From positions 232,964-296,963 of the forward strand of contig JBGSJG010000008.1 of NCBI GenBank assembly GCA_041742135.1: 64,000 bases of DNA. The letters run 5' to 3'. Shown in pieces: positions 12,489 to 59,430 of the stretch. The notes beneath the pieces are model-generated. The model did not search any database. It worked only from the letters and a program-made list of their open reading frames with translations, and had not been told where the DNA came from. Made by a program: the position numbers and the translations under genes. The stretch is from Patescibacteria group bacterium. GTDB lineage: Bacteria > Patescibacteriota > Microgenomatia > UBA8517. The stretch's first letter is position 1, and the number at the start of each line of letters is the position of its first letter.

Positions 12489-12538
12489 ATGATTTTAAAT
12501 ATTGATCTAATAGAATAATATGGTACGAGACCTGTTAG

Positions 12539-12613
12539 GGTGGCTGATGGGACTCGAACCCACGGCCTGCTGTTCCACAAACAGCCGCTCTAACCAACTG
12601 AGCTACAGCCACC
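12539..12613 (-). tRNA. tRNA-His (anticodon GTG) with genomically encoded G-1
   Basis: Manual fold of the reverse complement: acceptor GTGGCTG/CAGCCAC, D-arm GCTC-AGTTGGTTA-GAGC, anticodon loop TTGTGGA, T-arm GTGGG-TTCGAGT-CCCAT. An extra 5' G pairs with discriminator C, which is the His hallmark. Confidence 0.85.
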
Positions 12614-15134: not shown

Positions 15135-17258
15135 ATGACTTTGGACATTTTAAGCTCTGTGTTATTGGCCTCTTCAATTGCACGAGTATTAGCGCGATAT
15201 ATTATTGACACACTAGGGATTAATCTTTTTACAAGCACCACAATTCCGGGTTTTTCTGCTGAATTAGCAGTTGCCAAATCCTACGACATTTTGGATTTTA
15301 TTTTGACTGTTGGGCTCACTGCTACGAATTTTGTATTTTTCCGCTACGTTATTAATAACAAAAACAGGGCATTATCAGTCATTTATTTACTATTTAGCCT
15401 AATTCTTTTTACTCAGATAAATTTTGGCTTTTATAGTTTTAATGTAATTATGGTGTTAATGGCGGCGTTTTATGCATCTCTCCTCGCTATTACAAAGCTT
15501 AAAATAAAACTTGAATTATCGGAGTTTAATCAAACTACTTGGCACACTCTTTCCAACGGAATACTTGTCGGCATTTATCTATTAATCCTCATTAACAACT
15601 TTACTACCACCTTGTTTCCTCTTTTGGCTTTGGTTTTGGTGCCGATGGTCTATGTGTTTATTGGGCCCTTGGGGAATATTAGAAGAAGTCCGGGGCATCT
15701 TATCCTGTCGCTCGCGATTTTTGTTCCTACAAATTCAGCTCTCTTGCTTTTACTAGGAGCTGTTTCGGGCGTTTTGGCCTTTTTACTTCGCAATAAGAAT
15801 CTCTTTGCAAAAACATCTTTTCTTTACCCCGTTATTTTTGTAGTTATCGCGGCTTATAACCCACTTTATTTTTTGGGGCATTTGGACTCGGTGGAAGAGG
15901 GCTTTTGGCTTGGCTGGCTTTCGGGTCTTCAGGACGGAAAGGTTTTGTACCGCGACATTGCGGCGTATCACCCGCCAATGATTGTTTGGATTATTAATGC
16001 GGCTCAAAGCGTAATCGGCGCGAGTATCGAAAACACCCGACTAGTTCTTCATATTCTTCAAGTAGTGGGCATGGTAATGTATTACGCGCTTGTTTCGCGG
16101 GTTTTGGATAAAAAGCTTAGTCGGTTTGTTGTCCTTTTGGTTGCACTAAGCCTCACGGCCATCATGGTCCGAAACAACGTTGAGTTTCGTCTTGGAGTGG
16201 GGCTATTAAGCCTCGCACTTTTGCCCATGCCGCTTCTTGCTGGTGCTGTTGCCGCACTTAGTGCACTTACTAGCGTTGAAGTTGGAGTTTCAGCTGCAGC
16301 TGCCACTTTAGCTGTGCTTATGCTTTCTAGCAAAAGATTACCAAATGTCAGCAAGTATTTGTTGGGTGTAAGCATCGTAGCTCTGCCTGTTGCGATTTAT
16401 TTTTTAGCCCGTGGAGCGCTTTTGCCGGCAATAACGCAAATAACTTTTTATGCAAAAGCTTTTTCCGAAGGTTACTTTAACTTGCCGATAGACCGAGGAA
16501 CTACTTCTGCCTTCATTCATTGGCATTTTGTTAATCAGTATGTGAGCGCTTATCCGTTTTATTGGGAGCTGGCTCGTGGAGCGATTTTGGTAGCTCTTTG
16601 TTTTATAGTAAGTAAATTTAAGCCACAGGATCTTCAAAACAAACACAAAATCGCCCTGGCACTTGCAATATTTGGCCTGTTAGTTTTCCGCTCTGCAATG
16701 GGCAGGTCGGATTATTATCATCTGTTGTTTCCGCTTTTGGTCGCGTTGCCACTACTTTTTTACACGCTTGAAACTATTAATAAAAAATATCTTGTGCCAA
16801 TATTCTCGATCTTGTTGGTTTTTGTATTTTTTAGAAACATAGTCCATGCTAGTTTTATTGAAGCCAAGCTCTATGGCCTTCAAACTTACGGGCGAATAGT
16901 CGGGGAAACAGAGCAAGTCTTAACTCCTAGCCAAAGAGATCTTGTTGAATACTTAAAAAACAACACAAATGCCGATCAACCTTTGTTTGTTTTTCCTTGG
17001 AATCCAGAAGTGTATTTTTTGAGTGATCGTCCTAATGCAACCGCACATTACACGCCCTATGGTTTTTTTGACGAGACATATCAAAAAGAAATGGTTGCAC
17101 AAATTGAAAGTACGAAGCCTGTTATAATTTATAACCCCGAGATGAAGTTTGCCAATCTTGCCCCCGGAGCACTCGAAATTGTGAATTCATACATCTTAAG
17201 CACATACTCCGAAGTCACAAGCTTTGGGGATTATAAAATATGGACACCAAAAGATTGA
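15135..17258 (+). CDS. large polytopic membrane protein (707 aa, >12 TM), hypothetical
   Basis: Hydrophobicity pattern only. Confidence 0.45.
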   Translation: MTLDILSSVLLASSIARVLARYIIDTLGINLFTSTTIPGFSAELAVAKSYDILDFILTVGLTATNFVFFRYVINNKNRALSVIYLLFSLILFTQINFGFYSFNVIMVLMAAFYASLLAITKLKIKLELSEFNQTTWHTLSNGILVGIYLLILINNFTTTLFPLLALVLVPMVYVFIGPLGNIRRSPGHLILSLAIFVPTNSALLLLLGAVSGVLAFLLRNKNLFAKTSFLYPVIFVVIAAYNPLYFLGHLDSVEEGFWLGWLSGLQDGKVLYRDIAAYHPPMIVWIINAAQSVIGASIENTRLVLHILQVVGMVMYYALVSRVLDKKLSRFVVLLVALSLTAIMVRNNVEFRLGVGLLSLALLPMPLLAGAVAALSALTSVEVGVSAAAATLAVLMLSSKRLPNVSKYLLGVSIVALPVAIYFLARGALLPAITQITFYAKAFSEGYFNLPIDRGTTSAFIHWHFVNQYVSAYPFYWELARGAILVALCFIVSKFKPQDLQNKHKIALALAIFGLLVFRSAMGRSDYYHLLFPLLVALPLLFYTLETINKKYLVPIFSILLVFVFFRNIVHASFIEAKLYGLQTYGRIVGETEQVLTPSQRDLVEYLKNNTNADQPLFVFPWNPEVYFLSDRPNATAHYTPYGFFDETYQKEMVAQIESTKPVIIYNPEMKFANLAPGALEIVNSYILSTYSEVTSFGDYKIWTPKD

Positions 17259-19891
17259 CCCCTTGGGCGCTCTCCACTGACGACACCTTAAGGATTTTTA
17301 AAACTAGTACATCCGGATTAAGTTCTGCTGACGCAAATGGAAGACAAAGCGAACACGGACTAAACGCACTTCCAAGAGAAAAAGAAGAATCTGCAGTATT
17401 GAAATTTCTTAAGACTTTTTTGGATCCGCTAACTGCAATACTTATTGCTGCGGCAGTAATAAGCGCAGCAGCAGGAGTATTTGAGCACAACTCCGAAAAC
17501 ATCAACAATGCCATGCTGCTTCTGGGGATCGTTATTTTTATGGCTGGCGTGTCTTTTTTTACAGATCGCCAAGCCAGCCGCGCTCTCTCGAAACTTAAGG
17601 ATCTGCAAAAATCCTATGCCAGAGTTTACAGGGACGCAAAAAAAATTGAAGTAGAGTCAGAAAATTTAGTAGTCGGTGACATAGTTCATTTGAATGAAGG
17701 GGATAAAGTGCCCGCTGACGGCAGAATAATCGAGTGCGATCGGGGAGAGGCCAACGAAATGCTTTTAACGGGCGAGTCTGCCTCTGTTGTTAAAAGCACA
17801 GACACACTAAAGGCTTCCTGCCACTTAGCGGAGCGCACTAACATGGTATTTGCAGGCTCGCATCTTGAATCTGGTAATTTAGAATTTGTTGTGACGGCTA
17901 TAGGCACTAAAACAGAACTTGGGAAAATTTGGCAAGAACTACAAAATACAGATGAAGCCGAGACACCACTACAAGCTCAGCTGAATAAACTAGGTAAGGC
18001 GCTTATGGCAGGCACGTTGGTTGTTTGTGTTCTTATAATTGCCGTTTATATTTATCGGGGCCAGCCAATACTCGAAGCCTTGGTTCTCGCGGTAGCTTTG
18101 GCCATCGCATTTATTCCAGAAGCCTTGGGTGCGGTTATCACAATTTCACTGGCGCTTGGCGTGCGCGAAATGGTAAAGCACAAAGCCATAATAAAGCGTC
18201 TTCGTGCGGCCGAAGGGTTGGGGTCTGTTGGTGTCGTGTGTACCGACAAAACGGGGACAATTACTTTTGGGAAGATGACCGCAACTCATATCTGGACTGC
18301 ACAGGGTAAGGCACGCGAAATTAATGGGGATAAATTTACGCAAAACCCGGAGATAAATAGACTCATGCGAGTAGCACATTTATGCAATGACTTGGGAAAC
18401 CCCACGGAAAAAGCTCTTGGAGAGCTGGCTGCGTTTGTAGGATTTGAGATAACTGCAGATAGCCGTCGCACACGAGTTCACGAGTTGGCTTTTACTTCCG
18501 ATCGCAAAATGATGACTGTAGTACATGATCTTTCGAGCGAGCCGGCACTATCGGTACTTGTTAAAGGTGCACCCGATCGACTAATCGATCTAAGCACCCA
18601 CTACTTAAATGGCGACAAAAAAATTCGGCTTAATGTAGCAGTCAGACAAGATATCTTGGCGGCGATTAATAAATTTGAAGAAAAAGGTTATCGAGTTTTG
18701 GCCTTTGCCGATCGCGAACTGCCTTATAAATATGATGCAAAAAGAATTGAAGAGAGGCTTACTTTTGTTGGGCTCGTTGCACTAAGTGATCCTGTGCGGC
18801 CAGAAGTTAAGCTTACTGTGGCCAAAATGAAAAAAGCAGGAATTAGCGCAGTTATGATTACAGGGGACAGTCCGTTGACGGCTCTGGCAATTGCAAAAGA
18901 CGCTGGGATAGTGCCTCAAAGCGCTACGAGTAGTGCGGTACTTCTGGGAGCGGAGATCGATGAGCTTTTGAGTGTCGGTATTGAGAACTTGTCACACGAA
19001 ACTATAACTCGTATTTCGAAAACTCGCGTCTTTGCGCGCACCAGCCCAAGCAACAAAATTAACATCGTGCGAGTTTTTCAAAAGGCTGGAATGCTTGTAG
19101 CCATGAGTGGAGATGGAGTTAATGATGCGCCTTCCTTAAAGCAGGCAGACGTAGGCATTGCTATGAGTAACGGGACCGAGATTACCAAAGAAACTGCAGA
19201 TGTTATTTTGACTGGCTCCTATAGCGCAATTGCTGAGGCGGTGGAGGTTGGCCGCACAATTTTGCACCGTACTCGCCTTTATACACACGCTCTACTGTCC
19301 ACAAATGGTGCCGAGGTCTTGCTTTTTGTGGTAGCTGTTCTCGCAGGCTGGCCGGCTCCATTGACTGCGATCCAGCTTCTTTTGATAAATGTATTGGGGG
19401 ACGCGTGGCTTAGTATAGCTCTAGCCACCGAGAAGGCAGACCGTGGCATTATGAGTGAGCCTCCGCGGCGCAAAACGGATAACATCATCACCCGCTACAT
19501 GTTTACCAGCATTGGTATCCAAAGCATTATTACTACAAGTATTTTGGCTGTGGTTTTTGTCCTAAGCGGCCAATACGCTCAAGCGTTGGGTCTTGATGCA
19601 AAGTCCACGTTGGTACTTCAGCAGTCAGCAGTTTTTAGCACATTTATGGTCCAAAAGATCTTAAGATCAAGTTTTACCGCGCGGTCCTTGAAATTTAATA
19701 TCTGGCAGATTGCAGTATTTTCAAATCAGTGGTCCGTGCTTGCCGCTCTGGCAACTGTAGGGTTGGCATTTTTGGGCCTGTCGCTTCCTGTATTTGGTAT
19801 GACTGCGTTACCTCTGGCTCTTTTGCCTCTGCTTCTTTTGGGACTAATTCCGCCTGTGTCTGAAGAATTACTTAAATTCACTAGGCGCTGA
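17240..19891 (+). CDS. P-type cation-transporting ATPase (type II-like)
   Basis: CTDKTGTIT (phosphorylation site), PEAL, MITGD, GDGVNDAPSLK. Confidence 0.9.
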   Translation: MDTKRLTPWALSTDDTLRIFKTSTSGLSSADANGRQSEHGLNALPREKEESAVLKFLKTFLDPLTAILIAAAVISAAAGVFEHNSENINNAMLLLGIVIFMAGVSFFTDRQASRALSKLKDLQKSYARVYRDAKKIEVESENLVVGDIVHLNEGDKVPADGRIIECDRGEANEMLLTGESASVVKSTDTLKASCHLAERTNMVFAGSHLESGNLEFVVTAIGTKTELGKIWQELQNTDEAETPLQAQLNKLGKALMAGTLVVCVLIIAVYIYRGQPILEALVLAVALAIAFIPEALGAVITISLALGVREMVKHKAIIKRLRAAEGLGSVGVVCTDKTGTITFGKMTATHIWTAQGKAREINGDKFTQNPEINRLMRVAHLCNDLGNPTEKALGELAAFVGFEITADSRRTRVHELAFTSDRKMMTVVHDLSSEPALSVLVKGAPDRLIDLSTHYLNGDKKIRLNVAVRQDILAAINKFEEKGYRVLAFADRELPYKYDAKRIEERLTFVGLVALSDPVRPEVKLTVAKMKKAGISAVMITGDSPLTALAIAKDAGIVPQSATSSAVLLGAEIDELLSVGIENLSHETITRISKTRVFARTSPSNKINIVRVFQKAGMLVAMSGDGVNDAPSLKQADVGIAMSNGTEITKETADVILTGSYSAIAEAVEVGRTILHRTRLYTHALLSTNGAEVLLFVVAVLAGWPAPLTAIQLLLINVLGDAWLSIALATEKADRGIMSEPPRRKTDNIITRYMFTSIGIQSIITTSILAVVFVLSGQYAQALGLDAKSTLVLQQSAVFSTFMVQKILRSSFTARSLKFNIWQIAVFSNQWSVLAALATVGLAFLGLSLPVFGMTALPLALLPLLLLGLIPPVSEELLKFTRR

Positions 19892-20774: not shown

Positions 20775-21046
20775 TAAAATGGTAGTTTGTCGATTGTGCT
20801 GTCCTTATCTTCAGTTCCAAAGGTGTCACGCAGTAATTTGCCGACAGAGTTAATTCCAGCAATTCCCCCTGATAAAAAGAATGGAAGGACAAGGCTGTTG
20901 AGAAATTTATCCCAATTTGTCAGTGCCTCGGGTTGTGCATTAACTAGCACCATAGAGCCGGTAAATAGAAATGCTGAAAGAAAGATGCGACCGAATCGCC
21001 ACAAGACTTTTTTCCATTCTGGATATTCATTGTTCATACTGATCAC
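20774..21046 (-). CDS. holin-like two-TM protein
   Basis: Size, two TM helices, adjacency to the endolysin. Confidence 0.4.
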   Translation of the reverse strand: MISMNNEYPEWKKVLWRFGRIFLSAFLFTGSMVLVNAQPEALTNWDKFLNSLVLPFFLSGGIAGINSVGKLLRDTFGTEDKDSTIDKLPF

Positions 21047-22109
21047 CTCCTTTATTCCTTATTAATGTTCCTAAATATTGAAATGCGAGAGAAAAAATAA
21101 TTTGCGGTGTTGGCTGAAGCGGTAGTTTGTCTTTTTGGCAGGTTTCAAACTTACTTTTAAATTCCTGAGCTTCGTTTAACGCTCGACCCTTGGCTTTATT
21201 TACCTCATCAAGCTCGTCTTCCAGTACCCCTATGCGAGCCTGAGCCAACGGTAGGGCATCTGAACCGTTTTTGAGCTGCTTATTTAGAGCGTCAATTAGG
21301 GATTTATAGTACTTTTCTTTATCTAGCAGTGACTTTTCCAGCCTGCTTACATGCTCAACCCTGTTTTCAATTTCCTGGTTAGCCTTGTCCAATTCTGATT
21401 GTTTATCATTTAGCTTGTTAGATAGGTCAGTTTCACGACTTTTATACCCTCCGATAACACTTTTAATTCTGTCACTGGGGGTAGTATTGGAGTCGTCATT
21501 TATCTCAAGTATCTTTAATGCTTCTGGCCACTTTGTAGCTGAGGCGACAATTTGTTCATATTTAATTCGCCATTCTGGAGTGTTCGGGATCAAACATCCT
21601 TCAGGGGTTGAAGTTGTACCTTTTTCTTTTTTGTATTTTCTCAATTCATCAAAAAACTCTTGAGGGTTGATGGCACCAAAATAACCATTGCTATAGTTGT
21701 CGCTGACAAACTTTCCATTTTGTAGCTGCCCACGCTTTACAGTGAGGTGAAGGTGACTCCCTGTGCTGTTGCCAGTGTTGTCACTGACAGCCATCTCATC
21801 GCCTTCATTTTTGTTTTCAAAATGCTCGATTGACTTACAGTGAGCGTATGTGAGCTTATAAGTGTTATAAAGCCGAACAATGACTTCAAAGTACAACCCA
21901 AAACCGTCGTTACCTTCATTGCCTTGGGCATAAAACTGTGACTTCCAGGAGGAAAAAATATATCTAAAACCTTGAGGAGTATCTGGAAACTTGGTTTTTA
22001 AATCCCAGCCATTATGCCCTTTAAGTCCAAAACGGGCATAGGCTTCTGGATTTCCTCCAAATCCTTGAGTAAGTTCAAATGGTTCTATTGGTCGAATAAT
22101 GTCAGACAT
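21027..22109 (-). CDS. M23 (LytM) peptidase-domain endolysin with C-terminal coiled-coil region
   Basis: GHNGWDL (HxxxD) and GNSTGSHLHLTV (HxH). Confidence 0.75.
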   Translation of the reverse strand: MSDIIRPIEPFELTQGFGGNPEAYARFGLKGHNGWDLKTKFPDTPQGFRYIFSSWKSQFYAQGNEGNDGFGLYFEVIVRLYNTYKLTYAHCKSIEHFENKNEGDEMAVSDNTGNSTGSHLHLTVKRGQLQNGKFVSDNYSNGYFGAINPQEFFDELRKYKKEKGTTSTPEGCLIPNTPEWRIKYEQIVASATKWPEALKILEINDDSNTTPSDRIKSVIGGYKSRETDLSNKLNDKQSELDKANQEIENRVEHVSRLEKSLLDKEKYYKSLIDALNKQLKNGSDALPLAQARIGVLEDELDEVNKAKGRALNEAQEFKSKFETCQKDKLPLQPTPQIIFSLAFQYLGTLIRNKGGDQYEQ

Positions 22110-22113
22110 ATGG

Positions 22114-25100
22114 TTATCGGTAAATCAAACTCTTTATACTTTGATTGTCCGTGGAACCTGGCGTTTGTTTCAATGGATTAAGTGTTGATCCCTGTCCATT
22201 ACTTTCACCATCTTGGGGAACTCCACCAGGAAGGGTTGTCTTTAGTAAACGCTGCAAGTCCGTTGCGCTAAAAGTAACACTGCTCTGGAATAAAGCGGCT
22301 TCTTTTGGGTCATCTTTCATTAACAGCGGAACCACTTGGGGGATGAGTTTTTCGGCTTCTTCGTTCCAACGCAAAGCCATCTGTTGAGCGCCTTGAAGGT
22401 CGCCAGCCTCTATCAGCTTTTTCATTTGCAAACGAGTCGTATTGTATCCAACTTCAGTATCGTATTTAATGTCCCAGGCTATTCGTTGCTTCTCACCACC
22501 GTGGGTTCTGTAAAAACGATCCATTGTTAGCCCAAGAACATCTGCAGGGCTCAACAGCTCGCGTGCCAGGCTTCCTGTAAGCCCATAAATGGCGTGAGTA
22601 AGCTTCATCGGGCTTACACCAAGTGCACGGCCGATTGTGATGGCTAAATCAGGCGTTCTGCTGTCATATTGTTCCGATGGTGCTACTTTATCCAATCTTC
22701 TGGGAACAACGGGAAAGCCTGTAAAGAAGTTGGTATTGGTCGCTATCTCTAGCGGGGTGCGAATAATTGGAGGGAGAGCTCCTGAGAAAAATGCTTGTGC
22801 AGATAACTCGCCGTCACGAGTGAATGGAACCGGCGCGAGCTGGCTCATCCATTCCAAACCAAGTTTAAATAAGTTCTGTGGCTCCTGTTTTCTGACATAT
22901 TCAAAGGCATACATTAAGGGATTAAAGAAGATTGCTCCGATATCGCCCTTTGGTATTTGAACAACTTTAGGCACACGGTTGCCTTCTTCGTCTTTGTCTT
23001 CACCGACAATAACGATGAAATAGGTGTCTTTTGCCCATTGAGGAATATCATCCCAGAGTTCTTCGTGGTTCATCACGTTATAAAAATAGGTTGCAATTCC
23101 AGGCAGGACTGTCAGTGCCATAGCCCGAGCAGCAGTTCGAACAGGATTATCTTTTAGCACTCGGCCGACATTTAGCAAACCCTGCCATCGAGCATTCACG
23201 AATGGGACCCACATATTGATCAAACGAGCTTCTACTCCAGATTTAGCAAAATCGACCGTGACATTTCGGGCTTCAAAGGCTGCCTCTAAAGGAGTAGCTC
23301 CTTTACTGATGGCTTTTTTGTATATTCCAAGTCGAGGAGCAAGTTCTATTGCCTCAGAAAAGTTACCAATCAGCTCAAACGGATTAATGACGGCTTTGGT
23401 TCTCTCCATCCATTTTGGACGAAATAATTGTTCCGATGCTGTTGCCAATCCCTTGCTGGATTCGATGTAACCACCGTACCCGCCTTGATTTCTCATAAAT
23501 TCGTCATAGGCTTTGGATTCCCATTTAAATGCTGAGCGGAACCCATCTTTAAATCCTGAAAGCCAAACAGCAGGATTGAAGCCATACTTTGATACTAGTG
23601 TGGCTGTTTGATAGTCACGAACGGCATTAGATAGGGTGAACGGGAAATAGAGCGTTGTAGTTCCTGCTTTAAATGCTTTTGAAGATAGCATGACTAGCTT
23701 GCCCATCAAGCCAGCTTGAGCTGGACTCATGGCATGCATTGCTTCCGATAAATCTTTTGGCACCGCCCAACGTGTAACTTTGCCGCCAATAAAAACGCTG
23801 ACAGACTCCCATTCCTGCGGAGCATTTTCTCCTTCGGGTAAATATCGTATTAAACCTCTGGTAGCATCAGGATGTGTTTTCCTTAAATCAACGAGTTTAA
23901 GTGCAACCTTGTTTCTCTCCACCAGACTTACAGCTTTTGTTAGATTATCGATAATTGAAATAAATGGATCACGGATGATTTTGTCAGTTCCCTCCAAAGC
24001 GCTAACTACTCCTTGTTTGCTAACAGAAAACGTTTCTGAGCCGATGACCATTTTATCGGCTTCTTCCAGGGTGGGAATAAATTCTAAAACATGGAATGGT
24101 AGCCAATTTTTATTCTTTTCTACAACGGCATTAAAGGCTTTGTTGCTCAAAATACCAACATCTCTCATCGGCTCTAAAATTGCCTTAATCGCCCAATTCT
24201 GCATACCGTTACCAACTTGTTCAAACGTCTGGAAAGACTTATCACCCACCTTATTTTTCAATTCTTTAAGAGCTTCTTCTGCTGTGTGTTGAGTCACTCC
24301 AAGAGGGTTTTCGATTCCTCTTGCAGCTCTTTCTGAGGTTCTTTGCGCCAAAATATAGCGGGTAAAGTCTGCCCTCATTTTTCTCACTGGCTGGATGATT
24401 CCGTAGAGATCTCGAAAGTTACCTTCCACGATGCCAAAGCGACCGGCATACATTCTGGCTCCTACATACGGACTCGAGTTTATATCGATGGGTTTTCCTT
24501 GGAGTTTGCTCACTTTGTTTTCAAACTCACGAATAGGAGCGAATCGATCAGTAAAAAGACGGGGAAAGACTTCCATTGCCTTTTTTGCTTTATCTAGCAA
24601 ATTGGCAGCTGGTGACAATTTACCAACCATAGCATCAATTTGTTTTAAAGCGCTTCCGTCAGGTGGTGGGCTATCTGATCCGATAGGAATTTCTTGAGGA
24701 GGTCTGGGTGGAGTGCCGGGTGGTGCTGATACAAGCTCATCAGCTCTTTGAGTCTCTGGGGCAACAACGTTCCCATTTCTTCGTTCCTGGAATACCGGCT
24801 CATTGGAAACTTCCTTAGGATCAGGGGCACGCTCAGCTTGCTGCAACTCAACTTCTTCCGATTTTTTATATTTTTCTCTGATTTCGGCTGCTTTTACTGC
24901 GACTTTCTCATCTTTAGATAACTTTTCCATTAGACCTAAAGCTTCAGCGTCTTGAGGTTGATTTGTTACTGAATTAATAGTCGGTGTTTGATCTCTGAAA
25001 GCTTTATCGTATCCACGGCGAAAAGTTTCCAGAGACCCTTCTTTGTCAGAGTAAACCTTGGTTACTCTTACGTCTTTGGGGTTGAGGGCAACCAATAAAT

Positions 25101-27126
25101 CAGCTTCACCGGCCGCTTTAAGAACTACGGAGTCATATCCCGCTTTTCTGAGAGCAGCATCTACCAACAATCTTGCTGTTTTATCTTTTATATAGGTGTC
25201 TATACTCTGATCAAGGTTGGTTTTACCAAGTACTTTATGTATAAACTTGCCCCATTCACCAGCGCCAAAACCCATAAACTTCTGTGGCAGGTCAATAATG
25301 AATGGCTTCTTTGGTGTAAATTCAGTCTCAATGATTGCCAAGTTTGCGCCCATTCCAGATGGATCAGCACGTTTACCATAAAAAAGAGCACCAGACATCG
25401 CACCTTTATTTCCTGGTTGTAAATAAACCCCTTCGCCATATTTTCTTCCGCCAGAGGCACTAAAAGTCTCGGCTTCTGGAACTTTGAATCCAGTTTTTTG
25501 AATGATGTCTGCAATTGCTCTGGTGGTACCGTGATAAGAAATTACTGGTTTGTTTGGCACAATATCACCGGCTTGTTTTGCTAAAGCCAAACCTCGCTCA
25601 TAGCCCTCCTGAAGTATCTGCTTCCCCGATTCAATGCTGGAATATCTTTTCTTTATCCATTCAGGGATACGTTCAAATGTTTCATCAATTGTTTGTCGCA
25701 ATTCTGGCTGAGTTGTTTGCTTACTTGTTGAAGCTGCAGGTTTGGAAGGTGTGACGTCTATCTTGTTTTCCATGGCCACCGTCACTAAGTCGGCATCAGT
25801 CAATTCAGCAACTTTACCTAATCTGGTTTTTGCACTTTGACCGCCAAGACTGGTAACGATTTCATTTCTCTGGGCATCATTTAATGTGGCTCTAATGGAT
25901 AACCCTGCAGGCATATTTCTGACTGCTCGCACCACAATTGCACGCTTATTCGGGACATCTCTCCAAAGTTGGTAGTACAGATCCTGAAACTCCTGTCTGA
26001 ATGTCTTACCTGTATATCCCGTTGGATTACTTACCTTTGATAAAAACTCGTAGGCACGATTGGCAGTATTCCATGCTTGATTAAACTGTCCCATCTCTTG
26101 AGGAGTTTGCTTGGCTTGAGCTGGAAATTGCTTGGTAATATTAACCACCTTGCTTTTCCAAGCTTGTTTGATTTCTAGAGCGGTAGCTTTTTCATTAACT
26201 CCCAAGTATTCCAACGCTTGATTCTTGGTAATTTTTAACTGCTCGCCGGCTATTTTTTCAATTTGTTTTTCAGCAGCTGATTTGTTTGGAAGATATTTAG
26301 CTACGGCGAAATTAAGCGAATGTAATCCCATCATTGCAGCTGTATTTTTGAGAGCGTCCTCACTCGATTCACCCTTTATAAGCGAAGTTACATAAGTGGC
26401 TGGTCCGATAATGGCGGAGGATTTTATAAACGAGGGCTTCATTCCGGCAATGGAAAACGCACCTCCAAGAGCAAAATCGCTTACAAAATCTTTTGAACGT
26501 TGCTGTGCATCTTTGTGCGCTTCTTCTTTCTGTAGTTGAGTTAACCCTGCGAATGTCAGCCCATTTGAGAGAACACTAAAAGTTTTCGGAGCAATTGTTG
26601 CTACTCTACCTAAAAGAGGCACTCCTTTAAGGGCACCTTGCACCAGTCCGCCTCCAACTACAAAGGTACCAATGGTTCCCAAGACGTTAAACTCAACCTC
26701 AGTCATTTTTCCGGCCATTTCTTCAACGTCATTGGCGTATTTGATTTCCGGATCCCACCAGCCAAAAGTTAGTGCTTGTGCCAATCCATCTCCGGCACCC
26801 TTGAGTGCACCAATTGTTGCTTTAGGAAGGCGTTCAAGCACGTCTGTATCACGCGCCCCGAAACCAAGAGTTTGTGCCGTGGCTTCAACATAAATGTTCT
26901 TGAATGGCTTATATGACCCAACGGTTGGTCCTGGAATAGAGAACTCACTTTGTTCAGGTTTTAGCTTTTCTAGTGGGGTCAGAATATCTTCAATTTTCTG
27001 AGAGCCTATTTTCGCCACTTTACCAACAGTCTTTTGAGACTTACCAAACAAATCACCAATTGTCTGTCCGGTCGCTTGGATAGATGAGGTGATATTGGTT
27101 TTGAGATTACTTAGAAAGTTGTCCAT
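22114..27126 (-). CDS. giant (1670 aa) virion internal / ejection-type protein with a central ADP-ribosyltransferase-like segment
   Basis: N-terminal Gly-rich hydrophobic stretches. A central ISYHGTTR ... FSASGG ... IIETEF segment carries an R / S-x-S / E-x-E arrangement. The position matches the T7 core-protein slot. Confidence 0.55.
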   Translation of the reverse strand: MDNFLSNLKTNITSSIQATGQTIGDLFGKSQKTVGKVAKIGSQKIEDILTPLEKLKPEQSEFSIPGPTVGSYKPFKNIYVEATAQTLGFGARDTDVLERLPKATIGALKGAGDGLAQALTFGWWDPEIKYANDVEEMAGKMTEVEFNVLGTIGTFVVGGGLVQGALKGVPLLGRVATIAPKTFSVLSNGLTFAGLTQLQKEEAHKDAQQRSKDFVSDFALGGAFSIAGMKPSFIKSSAIIGPATYVTSLIKGESSEDALKNTAAMMGLHSLNFAVAKYLPNKSAAEKQIEKIAGEQLKITKNQALEYLGVNEKATALEIKQAWKSKVVNITKQFPAQAKQTPQEMGQFNQAWNTANRAYEFLSKVSNPTGYTGKTFRQEFQDLYYQLWRDVPNKRAIVVRAVRNMPAGLSIRATLNDAQRNEIVTSLGGQSAKTRLGKVAELTDADLVTVAMENKIDVTPSKPAASTSKQTTQPELRQTIDETFERIPEWIKKRYSSIESGKQILQEGYERGLALAKQAGDIVPNKPVISYHGTTRAIADIIQKTGFKVPEAETFSASGGRKYGEGVYLQPGNKGAMSGALFYGKRADPSGMGANLAIIETEFTPKKPFIIDLPQKFMGFGAGEWGKFIHKVLGKTNLDQSIDTYIKDKTARLLVDAALRKAGYDSVVLKAAGEADLLVALNPKDVRVTKVYSDKEGSLETFRRGYDKAFRDQTPTINSVTNQPQDAEALGLMEKLSKDEKVAVKAAEIREKYKKSEEVELQQAERAPDPKEVSNEPVFQERRNGNVVAPETQRADELVSAPPGTPPRPPQEIPIGSDSPPPDGSALKQIDAMVGKLSPAANLLDKAKKAMEVFPRLFTDRFAPIREFENKVSKLQGKPIDINSSPYVGARMYAGRFGIVEGNFRDLYGIIQPVRKMRADFTRYILAQRTSERAARGIENPLGVTQHTAEEALKELKNKVGDKSFQTFEQVGNGMQNWAIKAILEPMRDVGILSNKAFNAVVEKNKNWLPFHVLEFIPTLEEADKMVIGSETFSVSKQGVVSALEGTDKIIRDPFISIIDNLTKAVSLVERNKVALKLVDLRKTHPDATRGLIRYLPEGENAPQEWESVSVFIGGKVTRWAVPKDLSEAMHAMSPAQAGLMGKLVMLSSKAFKAGTTTLYFPFTLSNAVRDYQTATLVSKYGFNPAVWLSGFKDGFRSAFKWESKAYDEFMRNQGGYGGYIESSKGLATASEQLFRPKWMERTKAVINPFELIGNFSEAIELAPRLGIYKKAISKGATPLEAAFEARNVTVDFAKSGVEARLINMWVPFVNARWQGLLNVGRVLKDNPVRTAARAMALTVLPGIATYFYNVMNHEELWDDIPQWAKDTYFIVIVGEDKDEEGNRVPKVVQIPKGDIGAIFFNPLMYAFEYVRKQEPQNLFKLGLEWMSQLAPVPFTRDGELSAQAFFSGALPPIIRTPLEIATNTNFFTGFPVVPRRLDKVAPSEQYDSRTPDLAITIGRALGVSPMKLTHAIYGLTGSLARELLSPADVLGLTMDRFYRTHGGEKQRIAWDIKYDTEVGYNTTRLQMKKLIEAGDLQGAQQMALRWNEEAEKLIPQVVPLLMKDDPKEAALFQSSVTFSATDLQRLLKTTLPGGVPQDGESNGQGSTLNPLKQTPGSTDNQSIKSLIYR

Positions 27127-28202: not shown

Positions 28203-28448
28203 TTACGACACACCTCCTTTCTGGTCACCAGATTTGCTTGGAACTATCTGATTAATTCTTCCGGTACCAAGGTCAAATGTGTATTCGGTATTAGCATCCA
28301 AGCCATACTTGAAATACTTATTTACCAACCAGCGATCTTTTTGTGCTTCTAAAGCTTGGACCACTAGTTTGTATTGATTGATCATCTGCATCCTGGCCTG
28401 CAGTTCATCAAGATCTGATTTGTCGAGTTTTTTAGTTTTTTTGAACAT
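28203..28448 (-). CDS. small hypothetical phage protein
   Basis: ORF in the structural operon. Confidence 0.3.
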   Translation of the reverse strand: MFKKTKKLDKSDLDELQARMQMINQYKLVVQALEAQKDRWLVNKYFKYGLDANTEYTFDLGTGRINQIVPSKSGDQKGGVS

Positions 28449-29763
28449 ATGACTTAATCTCCTCTCTGCCCAACATAGAGACGAACCTTCGCCGGTAATC
28501 GGCTATTTCTTCCTCTATATTTGGACCGCCACGTTTCCTCATAAGGCTTACCTGGTGTTCAAGATATTTCTGCTTGAAAACTGTTTCGTCTTCACCGCTT
28601 TGTTTGAGTAATGGTTCACCTTCCGGTTCAAAGTCGAAATCAAAGTACCCATCACGAACGGTATAGACGCAGAAATCAAACGCTACGTTAGATACACCAA
28701 TGAGCAACTCTTTTACTAAGAGGTACTCATTTGTCAGTTCTGAGATATACAAACCGTTACAATCGGCTCGGGGAGTCAAGTATGCAGTGATATTTCGGGG
28801 ATCGCTGACCGCTATAAAGTGGTCTGGGAAGTCAATTCGTGTCTGTCCGTTACTGAGATTTGCTGTTCCTCGATAAACGAGGAGAACTTCTGCTGCCTCA
28901 ATCCCAGTATACACCAATCTATGGCCCTTTTTCCGGGGGTGCGGGATAGAGAAATTCGAAGTACCTGTTTTATTAATGTTTCCGGCCACATTTAGAGCTT
29001 CAAGGCCAGACATCAGGATATTGACCGAGTTGAAGTAGCCTGTACCACCATAAATTCTCTCAGCACTCATCTGACCTGCATTCACTTTGCCGGCGTTTAA
29101 ATCATTAACTTCTGCATTGGTGACTGCCAAGTCCTGAATTTTAGCCGTGCTGATGGCTGCGTTTGCAATCCGAGAGTTGCCGACCTCTAGAGCACCTATC
29201 TTTGCGTTAGTGATTGAAGCATCTGCGATCTCGGCATTCGTTACAGCTGCATCCTGGATTTTGGCTGTACTAATAGCGGCATTTGCTATTCGAGAGTTGC
29301 CGACTTCCAAAGCGCCAATCTTTGCATTGGTAATAGCTGCATCGGCGATCTCAGCGTTTGTGATGGCTGCCGTTTGAATTTTTGCTGTTGATATGGCTGC
29401 GTTGGCTATGCGAGAGTTGGTAATCTGCGCCAGGCCTATATGAGCTGTGAGAATAATGGCTTCTTCGATCTGAGCGGAGAGAGTGATAACGGACCCTGCT
29501 TTATAAACTTTTGCGGCAGTAATGGCATCATCTTTTATTTTTTGAGTTGCTACAGCGGCATCTGCCAATTTTTGTTCAGTGACAGAAAAGTCACTCAGCT
29601 CTGTATCGCTCACGGCACCTGGTTTTATATTGACGCTGTCAACTGAATTTGGAGCTAGCAGGGGGGAATCAACCCCATTATGGCCATGTGGCACGACCTC
29701 AGGAAATGGTTGATCCTGAACTTTCTTGTTTTCTAGTACTTTATCTATTTGTTTGGTTAGCAT
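28432..29763 (-). CDS. tail fibre protein with internal 41-aa tandem repeats
   Basis: NSRIANAAISTAKIQ.AA.TNAEIADA.ITNAKIGALEVG is repeated ~2.5 times; the position matches the fibre slot. Confidence 0.55.
   Translation of the reverse strand: MLTKQIDKVLENKKVQDQPFPEVVPHGHNGVDSPLLAPNSVDSVNIKPGAVSDTELSDFSVTEQKLADAAVATQKIKDDAITAAKVYKAGSVITLSAQIEEAIILTAHIGLAQITNSRIANAAISTAKIQTAAITNAEIADAAITNAKIGALEVGNSRIANAAISTAKIQDAAVTNAEIADASITNAKIGALEVGNSRIANAAISTAKIQDLAVTNAEVNDLNAGKVNAGQMSAERIYGGTGYFNSVNILMSGLEALNVAGNINKTGTSNFSIPHPRKKGHRLVYTGIEAAEVLLVYRGTANLSNGQTRIDFPDHFIAVSDPRNITAYLTPRADCNGLYISELTNEYLLVKELLIGVSNVAFDFCVYTVRDGYFDFDFEPEGEPLLKQSGEDETVFKQKYLEHQVSLMRKRGGPNIEEEIADYRRRFVSMLGREEIKSYVQKN
29150..29440. 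repeat. 123-bp-period tandem repeat (~2.4 copies) inside the tail-fibre gene
   Basis: Direct comparison: gcgtttgcaatccgagagttgccgacctctagagcacc... / gcatttgctattcgagagttgccgacttccaaagcgcc... / gcgttggctatgcgagagttgg... Confidence 0.8.
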
Positions 29764-35621: not shown

Positions 35622-36791
35622 TTAGAGTGAACCTACGCTCATAATGGCGTGGCGTTGCTCTTGTTCCATTTGCAGACCACATTCGGTCAGGTATTCGTCA
35701 ACTTGGCTGTCTTCACCGGGATTCTGACGGTTAGTCAAAAGCTTGGTGTCACGATTTGTCAGGTAGCGGTAGGTCAAGGCTTCCATGTCCAGACCAACGG
35801 CGTAATTACCATAAGTCGTTCCGATCAATAGTGGATGCTTGATGATATGCAGAGTTCCGTGTGGGGAGTCATAAGTCACGATTCGCAGTCCATAGGCTTT
35901 CGTGGGATTAACCACTTGGAGCTTCCCTTTAGCCCAACCGTTAACCATCGAAACAACTGCTGCAGATGCGAACAGATATTTCTCGGTGTTACCGTGAGCG
36001 AAGAGGCTTTCCAGCCATGAGTCAAATTCTGACTCGGTGTCAACGTTGGCAGATGCGTAAGTGGCAATCCTTCCTAGGATACCGTTGGTAAATCGTTTCG
36101 GATGAGTTCCAGATGTAACGATTCCTTTCTTACCAAACATAAAGGTTCGCTCGATATCGACATAGTGCTCGATACCTTTTTTGCGCCTTTGGTAATCAAA
36201 GTCGTTTTCTTTCACCCAACCTTGCGTGTTTCTGGCGGTTTCTGTGATACCTACCGGAGTTCGGAAAATCTGACAGTAGTTTGCTACTTCGGCAATAGTT
36301 GTCGACTTGATATCTCGCAAGCCGGCACCTTCTTCATTGGCATTACCAATGAGCCATACGTCTCCGACTGCAGAAGCGGCCGATCCTGTTGCCCCACCTA
36401 ACTCAGCCCCGACGGTAACCGTGTTAGCGTCTACGATTGCAGTGACTTGGAAGACCCATTTTTGGGCTGAAACCAAGATAATGTCGCCAACCTGTAAATA
36501 CTGGGATTGACCAGTAATGGTTAAGTTGCCTCCATCTGGATCAACTGTGCTGGATCCTGTAAGTTGTCGTTTACCAAATTCATCTTCAAACCATTTGAAT
36601 TCTGGATCAGAAGACTCTCTTTTTTTCAGAGCTTCGCCTTCGCCGGTTGCAGGATCTTTACCTGCATTCGTCAATATCGCTACTAGAGGATATCGATTGA
36701 CATCCAAAAGCGATACGACATCCGCCACGTCATACTTGCGTGTCGCGCCGACATTTCCTGTACCTCTGATTCCTGTTGCTGATGCTGGCAT
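35622..36791 (-). CDS. putative major capsid protein
   Basis: Size (389 aa), position after the scaffold-like gene, strong SD (GGAGGTGA), hairpin downstream. Confidence 0.5.
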   Translation of the reverse strand: MPASATGIRGTGNVGATRKYDVADVVSLLDVNRYPLVAILTNAGKDPATGEGEALKKRESSDPEFKWFEDEFGKRQLTGSSTVDPDGGNLTITGQSQYLQVGDIILVSAQKWVFQVTAIVDANTVTVGAELGGATGSAASAVGDVWLIGNANEEGAGLRDIKSTTIAEVANYCQIFRTPVGITETARNTQGWVKENDFDYQRRKKGIEHYVDIERTFMFGKKGIVTSGTHPKRFTNGILGRIATYASANVDTESEFDSWLESLFAHGNTEKYLFASAAVVSMVNGWAKGKLQVVNPTKAYGLRIVTYDSPHGTLHIIKHPLLIGTTYGNYAVGLDMEALTYRYLTNRDTKLLTNRQNPGEDSQVDEYLTECGLQMEQEQRHAIMSVGSL

Positions 36792-43780: not shown

Positions 43781-44917
43781 TTAGTAAATCTTTACTTTCG
43801 ACAACTGCTTTAATCTAAGATTAATTTTTGCTTCATATCTATGGTATCTTGACTTGAGAAAAACTTTTAGGGAATCGGGGATGATTTCTTCGTATTGATG
43901 GAGAGCATAGAGTATGTCCAGTTTTCTCTCTATCTGTAATTTGGAAAACCGAGCAATATACCCTTTATCAATGGTCCCTTCTTTGTCTGCTAGAGGATGC
44001 GAAATATATCGATCAAGTTTTTGGCCGGCAATAATGAAGGAGATAGCTCTATTGAAACATGCCTTACAGTTACCACAATTGTTTCCCAAATAACAACTCA
44101 CTGTCTCACTTGGAGCAACACCAAAGGACTCACTCCAATGGTTTTTCCAGAAGGAAATAATCTCAGGCTTAGTATAGTCAAAAAAGGGAGTTGTTAATTC
44201 TATATTCTTGGAATATATCTTTGAGAAAATTCTGTTACAAGACGAGTAAAACCTACGGCTTTTATCAGTATTTACATAGTTTATTTCTTCTTTATGCGCA
44301 CATATAAATACAGAAATTTTTTCCTTAGTTGATTGATTGGCAATTTCTGAAGCAACTGCTGCAAATAAAAGATTTCTAGCAGGAATAATTCCCATTTTCC
44401 AACGATCCCAGCCTGCATCAACATAACTTTTCAGATTGATTTTTACTATGAGAAGTTTAATTTTCAATTTTTTGCAAAGCTTTTTAACAACGCGTAACTC
44501 ATCTGCTTCGTTTTTTTGCCCAAATCCTATCCACACGGCCAAAACCTTCATTCCTTTATCTAGTGCATACAAAGCGCCAGCGGTGCTATCAACCCCACCA
44601 CTAAAAGAAATGACGCAATCGTAGTCGTTCTTTTCTGAAGCAACTAAAGTATTACTATCACCAGTAAACTCAAAATCAAGATTAAATGTTCTTGGAGCAG
44701 CTCTTTTGTCATTAAGGACATAAGATAAGAAAGAATTTAGTGCAGGTTTTGAGAAAAATTTTTTACCATTTACTGATACTGTGTCTTTTTCCAGATATCC
44801 AGCCAAAGTTGTTAAAAGTGCAACTTTAACAAAGACACCAATGGTATCTGGATTAATACCTTCTATGTTTAGATCGCTAGTATTTATTTGTTTATTACCT
44901 ATTTTTCCGATAATCAT
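43781..44917 (-). CDS. queC: QueC-like PP-loop ATPase (7-cyano-7-deazaguanine synthase homologue) with ~100-aa N-terminal and ~80-aa C-terminal extensions
   Basis: SFSGGVDST PP-loop and a CYLGNNCGNCKAC zinc cluster. At 378 aa it is far longer than the ~220 aa expected. Confidence 0.65.
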   Translation of the reverse strand: MIIGKIGNKQINTSDLNIEGINPDTIGVFVKVALLTTLAGYLEKDTVSVNGKKFFSKPALNSFLSYVLNDKRAAPRTFNLDFEFTGDSNTLVASEKNDYDCVISFSGGVDSTAGALYALDKGMKVLAVWIGFGQKNEADELRVVKKLCKKLKIKLLIVKINLKSYVDAGWDRWKMGIIPARNLLFAAVASEIANQSTKEKISVFICAHKEEINYVNTDKSRRFYSSCNRIFSKIYSKNIELTTPFFDYTKPEIISFWKNHWSESFGVAPSETVSCYLGNNCGNCKACFNRAISFIIAGQKLDRYISHPLADKEGTIDKGYIARFSKLQIERKLDILYALHQYEEIIPDSLKVFLKSRYHRYEAKINLRLKQLSKVKIY

Positions 44918-46638
44918 ATTGTTCTTCCTTTTTCAACCCAATAACTTCCAATAGCCAGGCAGTCTATTTCGCTTGTATACAGCGTTTTTATTGCTTGCTC
45001 GGGAGTAGTAACTATTGGTTCACCCCCAATGTTAAAGGATGTATCCAGTACGATTGGTATGCCAGTAAGTTTGTTAAATTCTTCAATCAGTCGATAGTAT
45101 AAAGGACTATTATGTTTATAGACCGATTGATAACGTGCTGTTCCATCTACATGCACAATAGCAGGAACCTCGGCTCTTTTATTTTTCGTGACGTAATGGG
45201 TTAGAAGCATAAAAGGACTATCGCAAGCATCATCAAAGTATTCTTTAGCTCTATTACCGATGACGCTTGGAGCAAGCGGTCGCCACTGCTCACGAGACTT
45301 TATAACATTCAATGTTCTATGCATTTCAGAGATAGAGGGATTTGCAACAATACTTCTAGAACCTAGTGCTCTGGGACCAATTTCCATTCTTCCTTGAAAC
45401 CATCCAACTATTTTCCCGTCAGCGACAGCTCGAGCAGTTTTAAGTGCGATGTCAGAAACCTGGGTGTGAGGAATTTTCAATCTTTGAAGTTCTTCTTCAA
45501 TTTCTTCGTCAGAGTAGCTTACTCCCCAATATGAGTGATCCATTTTGGGAAAACCAGCCTCACCATTTTCGTAGGCAACCTCAAGAGCTGCCCCTAAACT
45601 CACACCAGCATCATTCGCTGCTGGCTGAATATAGAGGGAGTCGGCATATTTTTCAGTCAAAATTCTTCCATTAGCTATACAGTTAAGTGCAACCCCGCCA
45701 GAATAGGCTACATTCCTGTTGCCAGTTTTCTGCACCAATACCGATACCAGATGTAAAACCGTATTTTCTAAGGCTTTTTGTACAGATGCCGCAAAGTCTT
45801 TGGAGAACTGAGAAAGAAGAAGTTCTTCTTGCACTTTTCCTGTTTTTTTAGAGAAAGAGAACTTTTTATCTATTTTTTCTTTCGGAAAACGTTTTGAGAA
45901 ACTATTAAGCCAAAATTCTTGAATAGGTTTTTGTTTATCTAATTGTCCTTTTTGTTCAACAGAATCTAATCCCACGATAGAATATCCAGTATTGTCCAGC
46001 ACTATTTCTGGGAATTCATAGACTGGTTTTCCGTGAGCTGCTAACCCCATTAATTTCCCGGCATCAGATGACCTCAAACCAATAAATGTGCATGCAGCTT
46101 CAATAAAATATCCAAGTGAATATTCGATAGGGAATGTCTTAAAGAATTCAATTTGGCCACCATCAGAATATCCCAATGCTCCGCTTCCAAATTCTCCCTG
46201 ACCATCAAGTACTAATATCGAAGATTTATCGAAACCTGAAACGCGAAAAGCGCTAGCGGCGTGAGCAATGTGATGGGGTACGTATTGAATTTTGGGTAGA
46301 CGTTTTAAATCATTAATCTCTGATAAATTAAAGGGGAATAATTCTTTTAATAAGCCCTTATCATTTGGAAACGGATACTTTAATCCGGCAGCTTTATATA
46401 GCCCTGGCTTATCCCAACCATAGACCACAACATCAATATCCCCAATGGTAAGATTGTGTTGTTCAAGGCAGTATTTAATTGCATGAATTGGAAAAACATC
46501 AAAAGCATAGCGTTTCCGAATAAAACGCTCTTCTTCAACAAACGAAAGAATTTGGTTATCCTTGATCAAACATGCTGAAGCGTCATGACCTTGTGTTTTC
46601 CAACCATTGACCCCTAATATAGTTAGATTTTTCTTCAT
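44914..46638 (-). CDS. NodU/CmcH/TobZ-family carbamoyltransferase
   Basis: N-terminal Kae1/YgjD-like region (GHDASACL, VPHHIAHAASAF) and C-terminal YrdC-like region. Confidence 0.8.
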   Translation of the reverse strand: MKKNLTILGVNGWKTQGHDASACLIKDNQILSFVEEERFIRKRYAFDVFPIHAIKYCLEQHNLTIGDIDVVVYGWDKPGLYKAAGLKYPFPNDKGLLKELFPFNLSEINDLKRLPKIQYVPHHIAHAASAFRVSGFDKSSILVLDGQGEFGSGALGYSDGGQIEFFKTFPIEYSLGYFIEAACTFIGLRSSDAGKLMGLAAHGKPVYEFPEIVLDNTGYSIVGLDSVEQKGQLDKQKPIQEFWLNSFSKRFPKEKIDKKFSFSKKTGKVQEELLLSQFSKDFAASVQKALENTVLHLVSVLVQKTGNRNVAYSGGVALNCIANGRILTEKYADSLYIQPAANDAGVSLGAALEVAYENGEAGFPKMDHSYWGVSYSDEEIEEELQRLKIPHTQVSDIALKTARAVADGKIVGWFQGRMEIGPRALGSRSIVANPSISEMHRTLNVIKSREQWRPLAPSVIGNRAKEYFDDACDSPFMLLTHYVTKNKRAEVPAIVHVDGTARYQSVYKHNSPLYYRLIEEFNKLTGIPIVLDTSFNIGGEPIVTTPEQAIKTLYTSEIDCLAIGSYWVEKGRTI

Positions 46639-46650
46639 AATATTTTTGTT

Positions 46651-47508
46651 TTAAACTCCTCTTTTGGCACCCCATATTTCATTTTGTAATCTACCTAGGA
46701 GTCTATAGCCCTTCTTTTTAGCGTACTCGACTACTCTTTGGGCATTATGCCTTACTTCCTCTGCCGTAACCCCCTGCGGCATAAGAATAACTTGTTCAAC
46801 TGGAATGGCCATCCCTTTAACCCATTCATTTTCAATCTCATCTAAATCTTCATCGTGCATCACTACGAACTTGAACATTGTGTTTGCCTGTGAAAGTGCT
46901 TGAATTACTTCTGGTCTTTTACGAGCATTCTTATGGTTTTGACTATTTTTCAGTTTAGGGCTACAGTTAAATTGACATCTAGAAAGCTGTGACTCTGTGG
47001 GCATAATTGTGCCATTGGTTTCAATTTCAATGACCCAATCCTCTCCCAACTCTGTCATTAATAAGTCTATCTGGTCTTTTTGCAGGAGAGGCTCACCGCC
47101 GGTGATAACAACACGCTTTTGTACATCTGGGTTTTCAGCTCCCCACTCTTGAGAAACACGTTCTGCGGTTTTTTCTATAGACCATTGTTCGCTTTCGGTC
47201 CAAAACTCCTTACTCTTAGGGTTCCATGTATAGTAAGCATCGCACCAGACGCACCTCAAGTTGCAAACATGCAATCTCAAGAAAACAGTTGGTTCGCCCA
47301 TACTAGGACCTTCACCTTGAATAGTGTAGAAAACACTGTCTCCACTAACTCTAAAGTGTCCTTTTTCAAGTCGAACATTTTCTGGAATCCTTAAAGCAGG
47401 ATCAACCTCATTGTTATCGAAGTCAAACGCTCGCTTTAATTCCTCGTCAAAGCTTTCTTCGATCCCATCTCCAAGGAATTGTTTTATTCTTTCTGTATTT
47501 AAAGACAT
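46651..47508 (-). CDS. queE: 7-carboxy-7-deazaguanine synthase (radical SAM)
   Basis: TIQGEGPSMGEPTVFLRLHVCNLRCVWCD. Confidence 0.75.
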   Translation of the reverse strand: MSLNTERIKQFLGDGIEESFDEELKRAFDFDNNEVDPALRIPENVRLEKGHFRVSGDSVFYTIQGEGPSMGEPTVFLRLHVCNLRCVWCDAYYTWNPKSKEFWTESEQWSIEKTAERVSQEWGAENPDVQKRVVITGGEPLLQKDQIDLLMTELGEDWVIEIETNGTIMPTESQLSRCQFNCSPKLKNSQNHKNARKRPEVIQALSQANTMFKFVVMHDEDLDEIENEWVKGMAIPVEQVILMPQGVTAEEVRHNAQRVVEYAKKKGYRLLGRLQNEIWGAKRGV

Positions 47509-59423: not shown

Positions 59424-59430
59424 AATTCTT

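Follow-up and report, generated by a model that had tools for sequence, protein, structure and literature searches.

The 1670-aa protein encoded on the minus strand at 22114..27126 (ATG start) of a 64,000-nucleotide stretch of a Patescibacteria group bacterium genome (contig JBGSJG010000008.1, positions 232,964 to 296,963; hereafter the window) is a phage-type polyvalent protein with an ADP-ribosyltransferase (ART) domain at its centre. From the N-terminus to the C-terminus it carries a Gly-rich region, the ART domain, a charged and Pro-rich linker, and a C-terminal module that contains LPD38, a domain already described as phage-specific and polyvalent. Judged by its sequence, the ART domain is a member of the PARP/diphtheria toxin H-Y-D/E class, and not of the R-S-E class that was first proposed for it. 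We consider it fairly likely that this is a prophage protein in which a packaged and ejected LPD38 carrier brings along an ART effector domain that modifies a host macromolecule.

The ART domain occupies aa 526-693 (25048..25551, minus strand) and was delimited by profiles, BLAST, AlphaFold2 (AF2) and Foldseek. The fold is supported because three independent lines lead to it: hidden Markov model matches of homologues, a profile-to-PDB sequence search, and a fold search. We hold the assignment of aa ~526-693 to the ART fold and family with high confidence. An exact-sequence look-up of the window protein returned no public contig, whereas a search with the full-length protein recovered 43 relatives. 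Among the 35 close ones, all source names given belong to the Candidate Phyla Radiation (CPR; Microgenomates, Woesebacteria, Daviesbacteria). Several relatives show concordant sub-threshold Pfam matches to ART-PolyVal and PARP just upstream of the conserved C-terminal part. BLAST connects the window segment with these domains (E=1e-6 to aa 621-756 of relative P0030). When homologous domains were aligned, ART-PolyVal was matched by 12 of 16 (best 6.7e-20) and PARP likewise by 12 of 16. The alignments with homologues have in common [YK]HGT, GxG[VI]YL, GYD[GS], and a last hydrophobic strand followed by [DN]P.

Two profiles were searched against all PDB sequences. The one built from the alignment of 16 domains (profile A1) found PARP3 at 9.6e-4, then tankyrases and PARP10/12/14/15, with matches almost exclusively to PARPs, whose catalytic-site His and Tyr are aligned with HGT and GxGxY, respectively. 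A broader profile of 28 sequences (profile A4) found PARP12, exotoxin A, PARP15/10, diphtheria toxin and tankyrases only, with no enzyme of the cholera toxin type. This broader profile was made to reach the third catalytic residue, and again only the N-terminal half aligned with the PARPs and toxins. Searching the PDB sequences with phmmer, using the domain and the whole protein, returned chance-level matches only (MTH1, decarboxylase). A profile that included the window copy matched 6764 proteins at E<=1e-3 among 1.84 billion cluster representatives. Many of these are giant proteins with up to 14 ART copies each, which is the behaviour described for polyvalent-protein ARTs; no other protein-modifying domain is as common in polyvalent proteins as the ART (Iyer et al. 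2017, PMC5512222).

The predicted structure points to the same family. An AF2 model made from the 16-sequence alignment (pLDDT 80, pTM 0.78) has seven predicted strands and a helical insert at aa ~624-661. Foldseek gave 93 matches in the PDB at E<=1e-3, and the best 50 of these are chain 9k3a_B from the pre-ejectosome of cyanophage A4 (6.4e-6), many tankyrases, PARP13 and the ART-fold toxin MbcT (2.7e-4). The leading matches in BFVD are phage proteins named 'ART-PolyVal-like domain-containing protein', and other top matches there are a PARP-like iridovirus protein, MuF fusions, an N4-like virion RNA polymerase, and gp26 of Phormidium phage Pf-WMP3. The initial annotation had expected an ART-like segment in the middle of a giant virion protein and proposed a fold search of residues ~520-680. 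Profiles, AF2 and Foldseek bear this out, placing an ART-fold domain over nearly the same range, centrally in a giant protein of a phage late operon.

The residues expected to hold NAD+ are well conserved. Conservation was measured over 258 near-full-length copies of the family domain, aligned from the retrieved proteins. The conserved columns are Y531 (77%), H532 (96%), G533 (91%), T534 (86%), Y568 (79% Y, 10% F), Y583 (67% Y, 24% F) and D665 (91%), along with G559, G564, G566, A576, P608, G663, Y664, [GS]666, F/L681 and P683. H532, G533, T534, Y568, Y583 and D665 fall in the most conserved columns of the family and are identical in the four close homologues. H532 (25531..25533, minus strand), in the YHGT of strand 1, aligns with the His of the PARP H-G-[ST] motif and of exotoxin A YHGT, and would be the NAD-binding His. 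Y568 (25423..25425, minus strand), in the GEGVYL of strand 2, aligns with the Tyr of G-x-G-x-Y-F in PARPs and exotoxin A, and Y583 (25378-25380, minus strand) is the second conserved aromatic in the family alignment. The AF2 model puts H532 in strand 1 (aa 528-535) and Y568 in strand 2 (aa 567-571). The paired pattern [YFW]HG[ST]...G.G[VILF][YF][FLM] is present once in the protein (aa 531-569) but in none of 2000 shuffled copies, and on this sequence evidence YHGT...GEGVYL is the motif pair that defines the domain.

The published active site of polyvalent-protein ARTs combines a His on strand 1 with a Tyr on strand 2 and an Asp on strand 5, and these ARTs are treated as distinct from the R-S-E clade of Alt and VIP2 (Iyer et al. 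2017, PMC5512222). In the window copy, the conserved D665 of GYD[GS] (here GYDS; 25132..25134, minus strand) marks the N-terminal end of the fifth predicted strand (aa 666-671). By our reading of that text, D665 is probably its 'D in strand 5'. All three members of the H-Y-D triad are then present, because D665 heads the fifth predicted strand.

The position that corresponds to the catalytic Glu of PARPs differs. The family motif E[YIV]V[VA]F[DN]P presumably corresponds to NEYIVYD of PARP1, which contains E988; this column is set by a resemblance of motifs and not by a computed alignment, since the profile alignments end before reaching it. The presumed column holds E in 39% and Q in 11% of family copies. 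The window copy, with the column so placed by motif resemblance, lacks the Glu at the start of the E988-equivalent strand and reads E674-A-D676-L677 (25096..25107, minus strand; family alignment), with Leu677 in the column, D676 at -1 and E674 at -3. An acid displaced as in D676 is also found in ~20 family copies (for example GADIFLVFDP, DSYIVLDP and DTYAVFRP), with the variant pattern D[STIL][YFL]xx[FL]. PARP10/14/15 and other human PARPs whose triad is H-Y-I/L/Y do work as mono-ARTs. Loss of the Glu alone is thus no argument for a dead enzyme, since such triads still support mono-ADP-ribosylation. We hold it slightly more likely than not that the domain is catalytically active.

The closest known family is ART-PolyVal (Pfam PF18760; related to Tox-ART-HYD2), which the window domain resembles in its fold, in its H/Y/D positions, and in its place in a giant LPD38 phage protein; sister proteins match PF18760 at the same place as the window ART. 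As in that family, the ART occurs inside a multidomain polyvalent protein, with ART and LPD38 in one polypeptide encoded in a prophage late operon. The window copy differs in belonging to a divergent sub-branch of five sequences (itself and P0001-P0004) that falls below the Pfam threshold. It also has extra loops at aa 579-582 and 587-597, a longer helical insert, and Leu in the E/Q column with Asp one residue earlier; behind its last-but-one strand it reads ALNP where FDP is usual. No ART-PolyVal member was found to be characterised biochemically in the literature that we searched.

PARPs, diphtheria toxin and exotoxin A are the best profile and fold matches, and their His, Gly, and first and second Tyr align with those of the window domain. 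They differ in their third catalytic position, their sequences can be aligned over the N-terminal half only, and the fold matches have TM-scores of ~0.45-0.5. The window ART also has neither the regulatory nor the helical domain of PARPs. Some sister proteins have tandem ART copies, at aa 463-595 and 647-821 in P0003 and at aa 623-752 and 763-855 in P0032. In P0003, a copy with the canonical Glu (ETSGEAVVLNP) comes first and a copy of the window type second; these sequences suggest duplication and divergence of the cargo. The ART copies of P0005-P0008 (aa ~453-590) have KHGT for YHGT and Gln in the Glu column (LNQMVIFDP), an H-Y-Q configuration found in ~11% of family copies.

The C-terminal module, aa 850-1670 (22117..24579, minus strand), was delimited from homologues and AF2. 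It is 53-91% identical among all close CPR homologues and is always C-terminal in them. Within it, Pfam LPD38 (PF18857) covers aa 1356-1529 (22540..23061, minus strand) at E=1.3e-24, and the score of 87.7 bits is above the Pfam gathering cut-off of 27. The AF2 model of the module is mostly alpha-helical (pLDDT 81). With tblastn, the module matched giant proteins of Pelagibacter phages HTVC010P/034P and of Bacillus phages of the Page group, the 'DarB-like antirestriction' protein of Vibrio phage VvAW1 (>3600 aa), the 'large polyvalent protein' of Planktothrix phage Pag-Yong1, and the 'RelA/SpoT' protein of Synechococcus phage MinM2. We take the Pelagibacter, Page-group and VvAW1 phages to be short-tailed. 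These phage homologues bear other N-terminal cargo (methylase, RelA/SpoT), and a copy of the ART was found in 37 of 113 module homologues. The picture is one of a conserved carrier with exchangeable cargo. Between the carrier and the ART lies the linker, aa 700-849 (24580..25029, minus strand), recognised by its composition of 11% P, 17% D+E and 15% K+R.

Known LPD38 proteins suggest how such a module may be used. Phage phi24B gp47, a 2811-aa LPD38 protein, was detected by proteomics in podovirus virions; it is unseen in the reconstruction and has been proposed to be an ejection protein. The LPD38 protein of coliphage PTXU04 (PTXU04_00025) is required for efficient infection. In phi24B gp47, VvAW1, Pag-Yong1 and PTXU04_00025, as here, a giant protein has its LPD38 module at or close to the C-terminus, and all four are from podophages. 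These proteins differ from the window protein in their N-terminal cargo (LPD1/LPD5/MuF-C peptidase, methylase-helicase, RelA/SpoT), and module identity is ~25%. By homology to the virion-detected gp47 and by gene order, packaging of the window protein in the capsid is likely.

Gene order fits this reading. In the late operon, the giant open reading frame follows the genes for the head, the KH protein, the amidase and the tail fibre and precedes one for a lysis-type peptidase, and no tape-measure, sheath or tube family was matched among the surrounding genes. Syntenic metagenomic CPR phage loci (L003 and L004) have the same order, with a weak SU10-type adaptor match, and then an amidase, small open reading frames and an integrase. 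The initial annotation placed the gene in the internal-core/ejection slot of a podovirus-like module. The late-operon position and gene order agree with that, and the slot itself is a reasonable interpretation.

A second comparison comes from the solved pre-ejectosome of cyanophage A4, in which gp27 (1717 aa) and gp26 form the outer layer (PDB 9k3a), with gp27 resting against the first circle of packaged DNA (PMC12002296). The gp27 of the A-4L genome (KF356198, 20116-25269) contains SLYHGT...GSGTYFS...VGVDAL...DTTLVINPDAV at aa ~1423-1610. This ART-PolyVal-like motif set is common to it and the window protein, the NP variant included. The two proteins differ in that the segment is near the C-terminus of gp27 and central in the window protein, and similarity was not detectable outside the ART segment. 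The text of the A4 cryo-EM paper (PMC12002296) contains 'ADP-ribosyl' zero times and does not mention the ART-like segment. We infer that Foldseek chain 9k3a_B corresponds to gp27: with 1071 modelled residues it is too long for gp28 (1058 aa), and the motif search puts the ART-like segment in gp27. An assignment of the chain to gp28, which has an alpha+beta domain, was dropped on these grounds. A match of the module profile to 80 residues of A4 gp26 (E=7e-4 in a 4-sequence search) is weak, and we do not trust it.

From these observations, a sequence of events can be proposed. The LPD38 module would act as a carrier, packaged in the capsid of a short-tailed phage, as homology and gene position suggest, and would be released into the cell together with the phage DNA. 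The Pro- and charge-rich linker would tie this carrier to one ART-PolyVal domain. Once ejected, the ART would bind NAD+ and attach one ADP-ribose unit to a protein or nucleic acid of the host. Such a modification may serve host takeover, disarming or counter-defence early in infection, a role that we propose because of the analogy with the polyvalent-protein model and with T4 Alt. T4 Alt is an ART that is packaged in the head, injected with the DNA, and modifies host proteins (Iyer et al. 2017, PMC5512222). The notion of an injected effector fused to a core protein, also present in the initial annotation, is thus kept as the best reading in the form of an effector on a carrier module, and only its Alt-like class and the mapping of the three motifs are given up.

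Several results weigh against this proposal. The excised centre of the protein gave only a faint PARP match in Pfam (E=0.17-0.2, aa 528-569) and no match to ART-PolyVal PF18760 at E<=1. Used alone, the ART domain found no homologue in a word-indexed search of 5.8 billion proteins, and no match by tblastn in 50,697 GenBank phage records. The acid is one residue off the presumed Glu column, so judging from the sequence, activity could be altered or lost. As for the carrier, the model of the module has no significant Foldseek match in the PDB (best E=0.74), and no solved ejection protein (T7 gp14-16, A4 gp26-29) was among the matches. The ART appears dispensable for carrier function, because 76 of the 113 module homologues are without a copy. 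Finally, packaging is read from a virion-detected LPD38 homologue and from gene order, and not from this phage's own particles.

Some of the same results would be expected if the domain were a catalytically dead remnant, with a structural or NAD-binding role for capsid packing or target binding only. The Leu in the presumed Glu column, the extra inserts and sub-threshold Pfam score of the domain, and the absence of the ART from most carrier-module homologues all fit such a remnant. So does A4 gp27, in which the ART-like part belongs to a building block of the pre-ejectosome and has no enzymatic role ascribed to it by the authors (PMC12002296). However, the NAD-site H, G, T, Y and Y and the Asp of GYD are all kept, and D676 adjoins the Glu column just as the acid does in the other displaced-acid variants of the family. 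The activity of human PARPs with H-Y-I/L/Y triads also speaks against inferring a dead enzyme from Leu677. We regard a dead remnant as unlikely.

A somewhat less probable alternative concerns the target. The domain may act on nucleic acid, modifying DNA or RNA ends in the manner of DarT or Tpt1, or may consume NAD+ itself as a glycohydrolase or phosphorylase like MbcT. There is weak similarity to Tpt1/KptA (PDB E=0.2; PF01885 E=0.0044 for two members), MbcT is among the Foldseek matches, and the position of A4 gp27 against the packaged DNA would suit a nucleic acid substrate. The best scores, however, belong to PARPs, exotoxin A and diphtheria toxin, which mainly modify proteins, and depletion of NAD+ would normally be harmful to a replicating phage. 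It is similarly improbable that the window clade and the A4 gp27 segment together form a distinct sub-type of capsid-packaged ART, located in the pre-ejectosome and with a different substrate or chemistry. Such a sub-type might modify the leading DNA end or a CPR-specific host factor. Should this hold, phages of CPR bacteria would have in it their first known injected enzyme effector.

The least tenable alternative is the one made in the initial annotation, that the domain is a cholera toxin- or T4 Alt-type R-S-E ART with R536 as the Arg, FSASGG as S-x-S and IIETEF as E-x-E. The three quoted strings do exist (ISYHGTTR at aa 529-536, FSASGG at aa 555-560, IIETEF at aa 598-603) and are in the right order, and T4 Alt is a genuine packaged ART. 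However, the two profile searches and the listed fold matches are free of R-S-E enzymes, and all matches belong to the H-Y-E clade. The supposed catalytic columns are not conserved across the family: A, gap or S predominate at R536, the loop that holds S556 and S558 is variable, P or E is found at E600, and Y is the usual residue at E602. The AF2 model has R536 at the start of helix 1, and FSASGG (aa 556-559) is an off-strand loop, the loop of lowest confidence and among only three segments with pLDDT <50. IIETEF is in the middle of strand 3 (aa 596-603) and not in the loop before the catalytic strand. When the protein is shuffled, a loose version of the pattern (R.{10,40}S.S.{25,60}E.E) turns up 1.06 times per copy on average, and the observed count of 4 is attained in 39 of 500 shuffles. 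Since the loose version is expected by chance, the R / S-x-S / E-x-E pattern is no evidence for the class. T4 Alt further differs in being a myovirus protein that is not polyvalent, and no similarity to it was detected in profile searches. With its motifs off the catalytic positions, the Alt-like hypothesis fails; sequence and fold already refute it.

The protein adds a divergent ART-PolyVal member, from a CPR prophage, to a kind of system that is already known, and we claim no conceptual novelty. The modular design of an LPD38 carrier with exchangeable cargo (ART, methylase-helicase, RelA/SpoT) extends with it to phages of CPR bacteria, of whose virus-host biology almost nothing is known. Correcting the annotation from Alt-like to an H-Y-D/E polyvalent ART has practical consequences, as different residues should be mutated and different inhibitors and assays chosen. 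The unannotated segment of the solved A4 gp27 that appears to be ART-like offers a structural frame for how such a domain is stored in the capsid. The result is thus of use for annotation and as a lead for the biochemistry of ART-PolyVal domains.

The remainder of the protein gives few matches. A Pfam scan of the whole protein found LPD38 and a marginal DnaJ match only, and an NCBIfam scan found no meaningful match. The N-terminal ~300 aa (26227..27126, minus strand) are Gly-rich, match no family, and contain a single hydrophobic stretch at aa ~144-166. The J-domain-like stretch is at aa 306-364 (26035..26211, minus strand; DnaJ E=0.057, and E=0.0099 in homologue P0001). We rejected it as a functional J domain; by our reading of the placement, FPA stands in the presumed HPD position, and the sequence is probably not that of a working J domain. 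The equivalent pre-ART region of homologues has weak matches to BRX (PF08381).

The surrounding minus-strand genes are those of a phage late region. The portal gene is at 50930-52837 and the major head protein gene at 35622-36791, and the head gene is followed by genes for a KH protein and a 554-aa protein with a C-terminal amidase. The tail-fibre gene is at 28432-29763, and a 356-aa protein is encoded between it and the giant open reading frame. Downstream, the neighbouring gene (21027-22109, minus strand) encodes a 360-aa protein with an M23-type peptidase domain (sub-threshold in Pfam; metallo-endopeptidase/endolysin in PHROGs) and is followed by small open reading frames. It occupies the lysis slot, where the syntenic loci have an amidase. 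The long charged C-terminal half of this neighbour resembles a coiled coil and ends in a hydrophobic tail.

The phage late operon meets host DNA near 20.2-20.5 kb, because the plus-strand genes of 1-20200 look cellular. Features in this part include a tRNA-His (12538-12612), a PMT_2-like glycosyltransferase gene (15135-17258, plus strand) and a P-type cation ATPase gene (17240-19891, plus strand). Unlike in L003/L004, no integrase was seen at the 20-kb end of the phage region. The element looks like a prophage next to host genes in a CPR (Microgenomates-like) genome.

Farther into the phage region, adjacent QueC-like, Nol-like carbamoyltransferase and QueE-like radical-SAM genes (43781-47508, minus strand; PHROGs, E down to 1.7e-116) suggest, by sequence similarity, a 7-deazaguanine-type modification of the phage DNA. 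On the far side, at 55423-59486 (minus strand), a 768-aa helicase of the ResIII/SNF2 type, ending in an endonuclease domain, adjoins an N6/N4 DNA methylase (586 aa), and the pair looks like a type III-like restriction-modification system of either the phage or the host.

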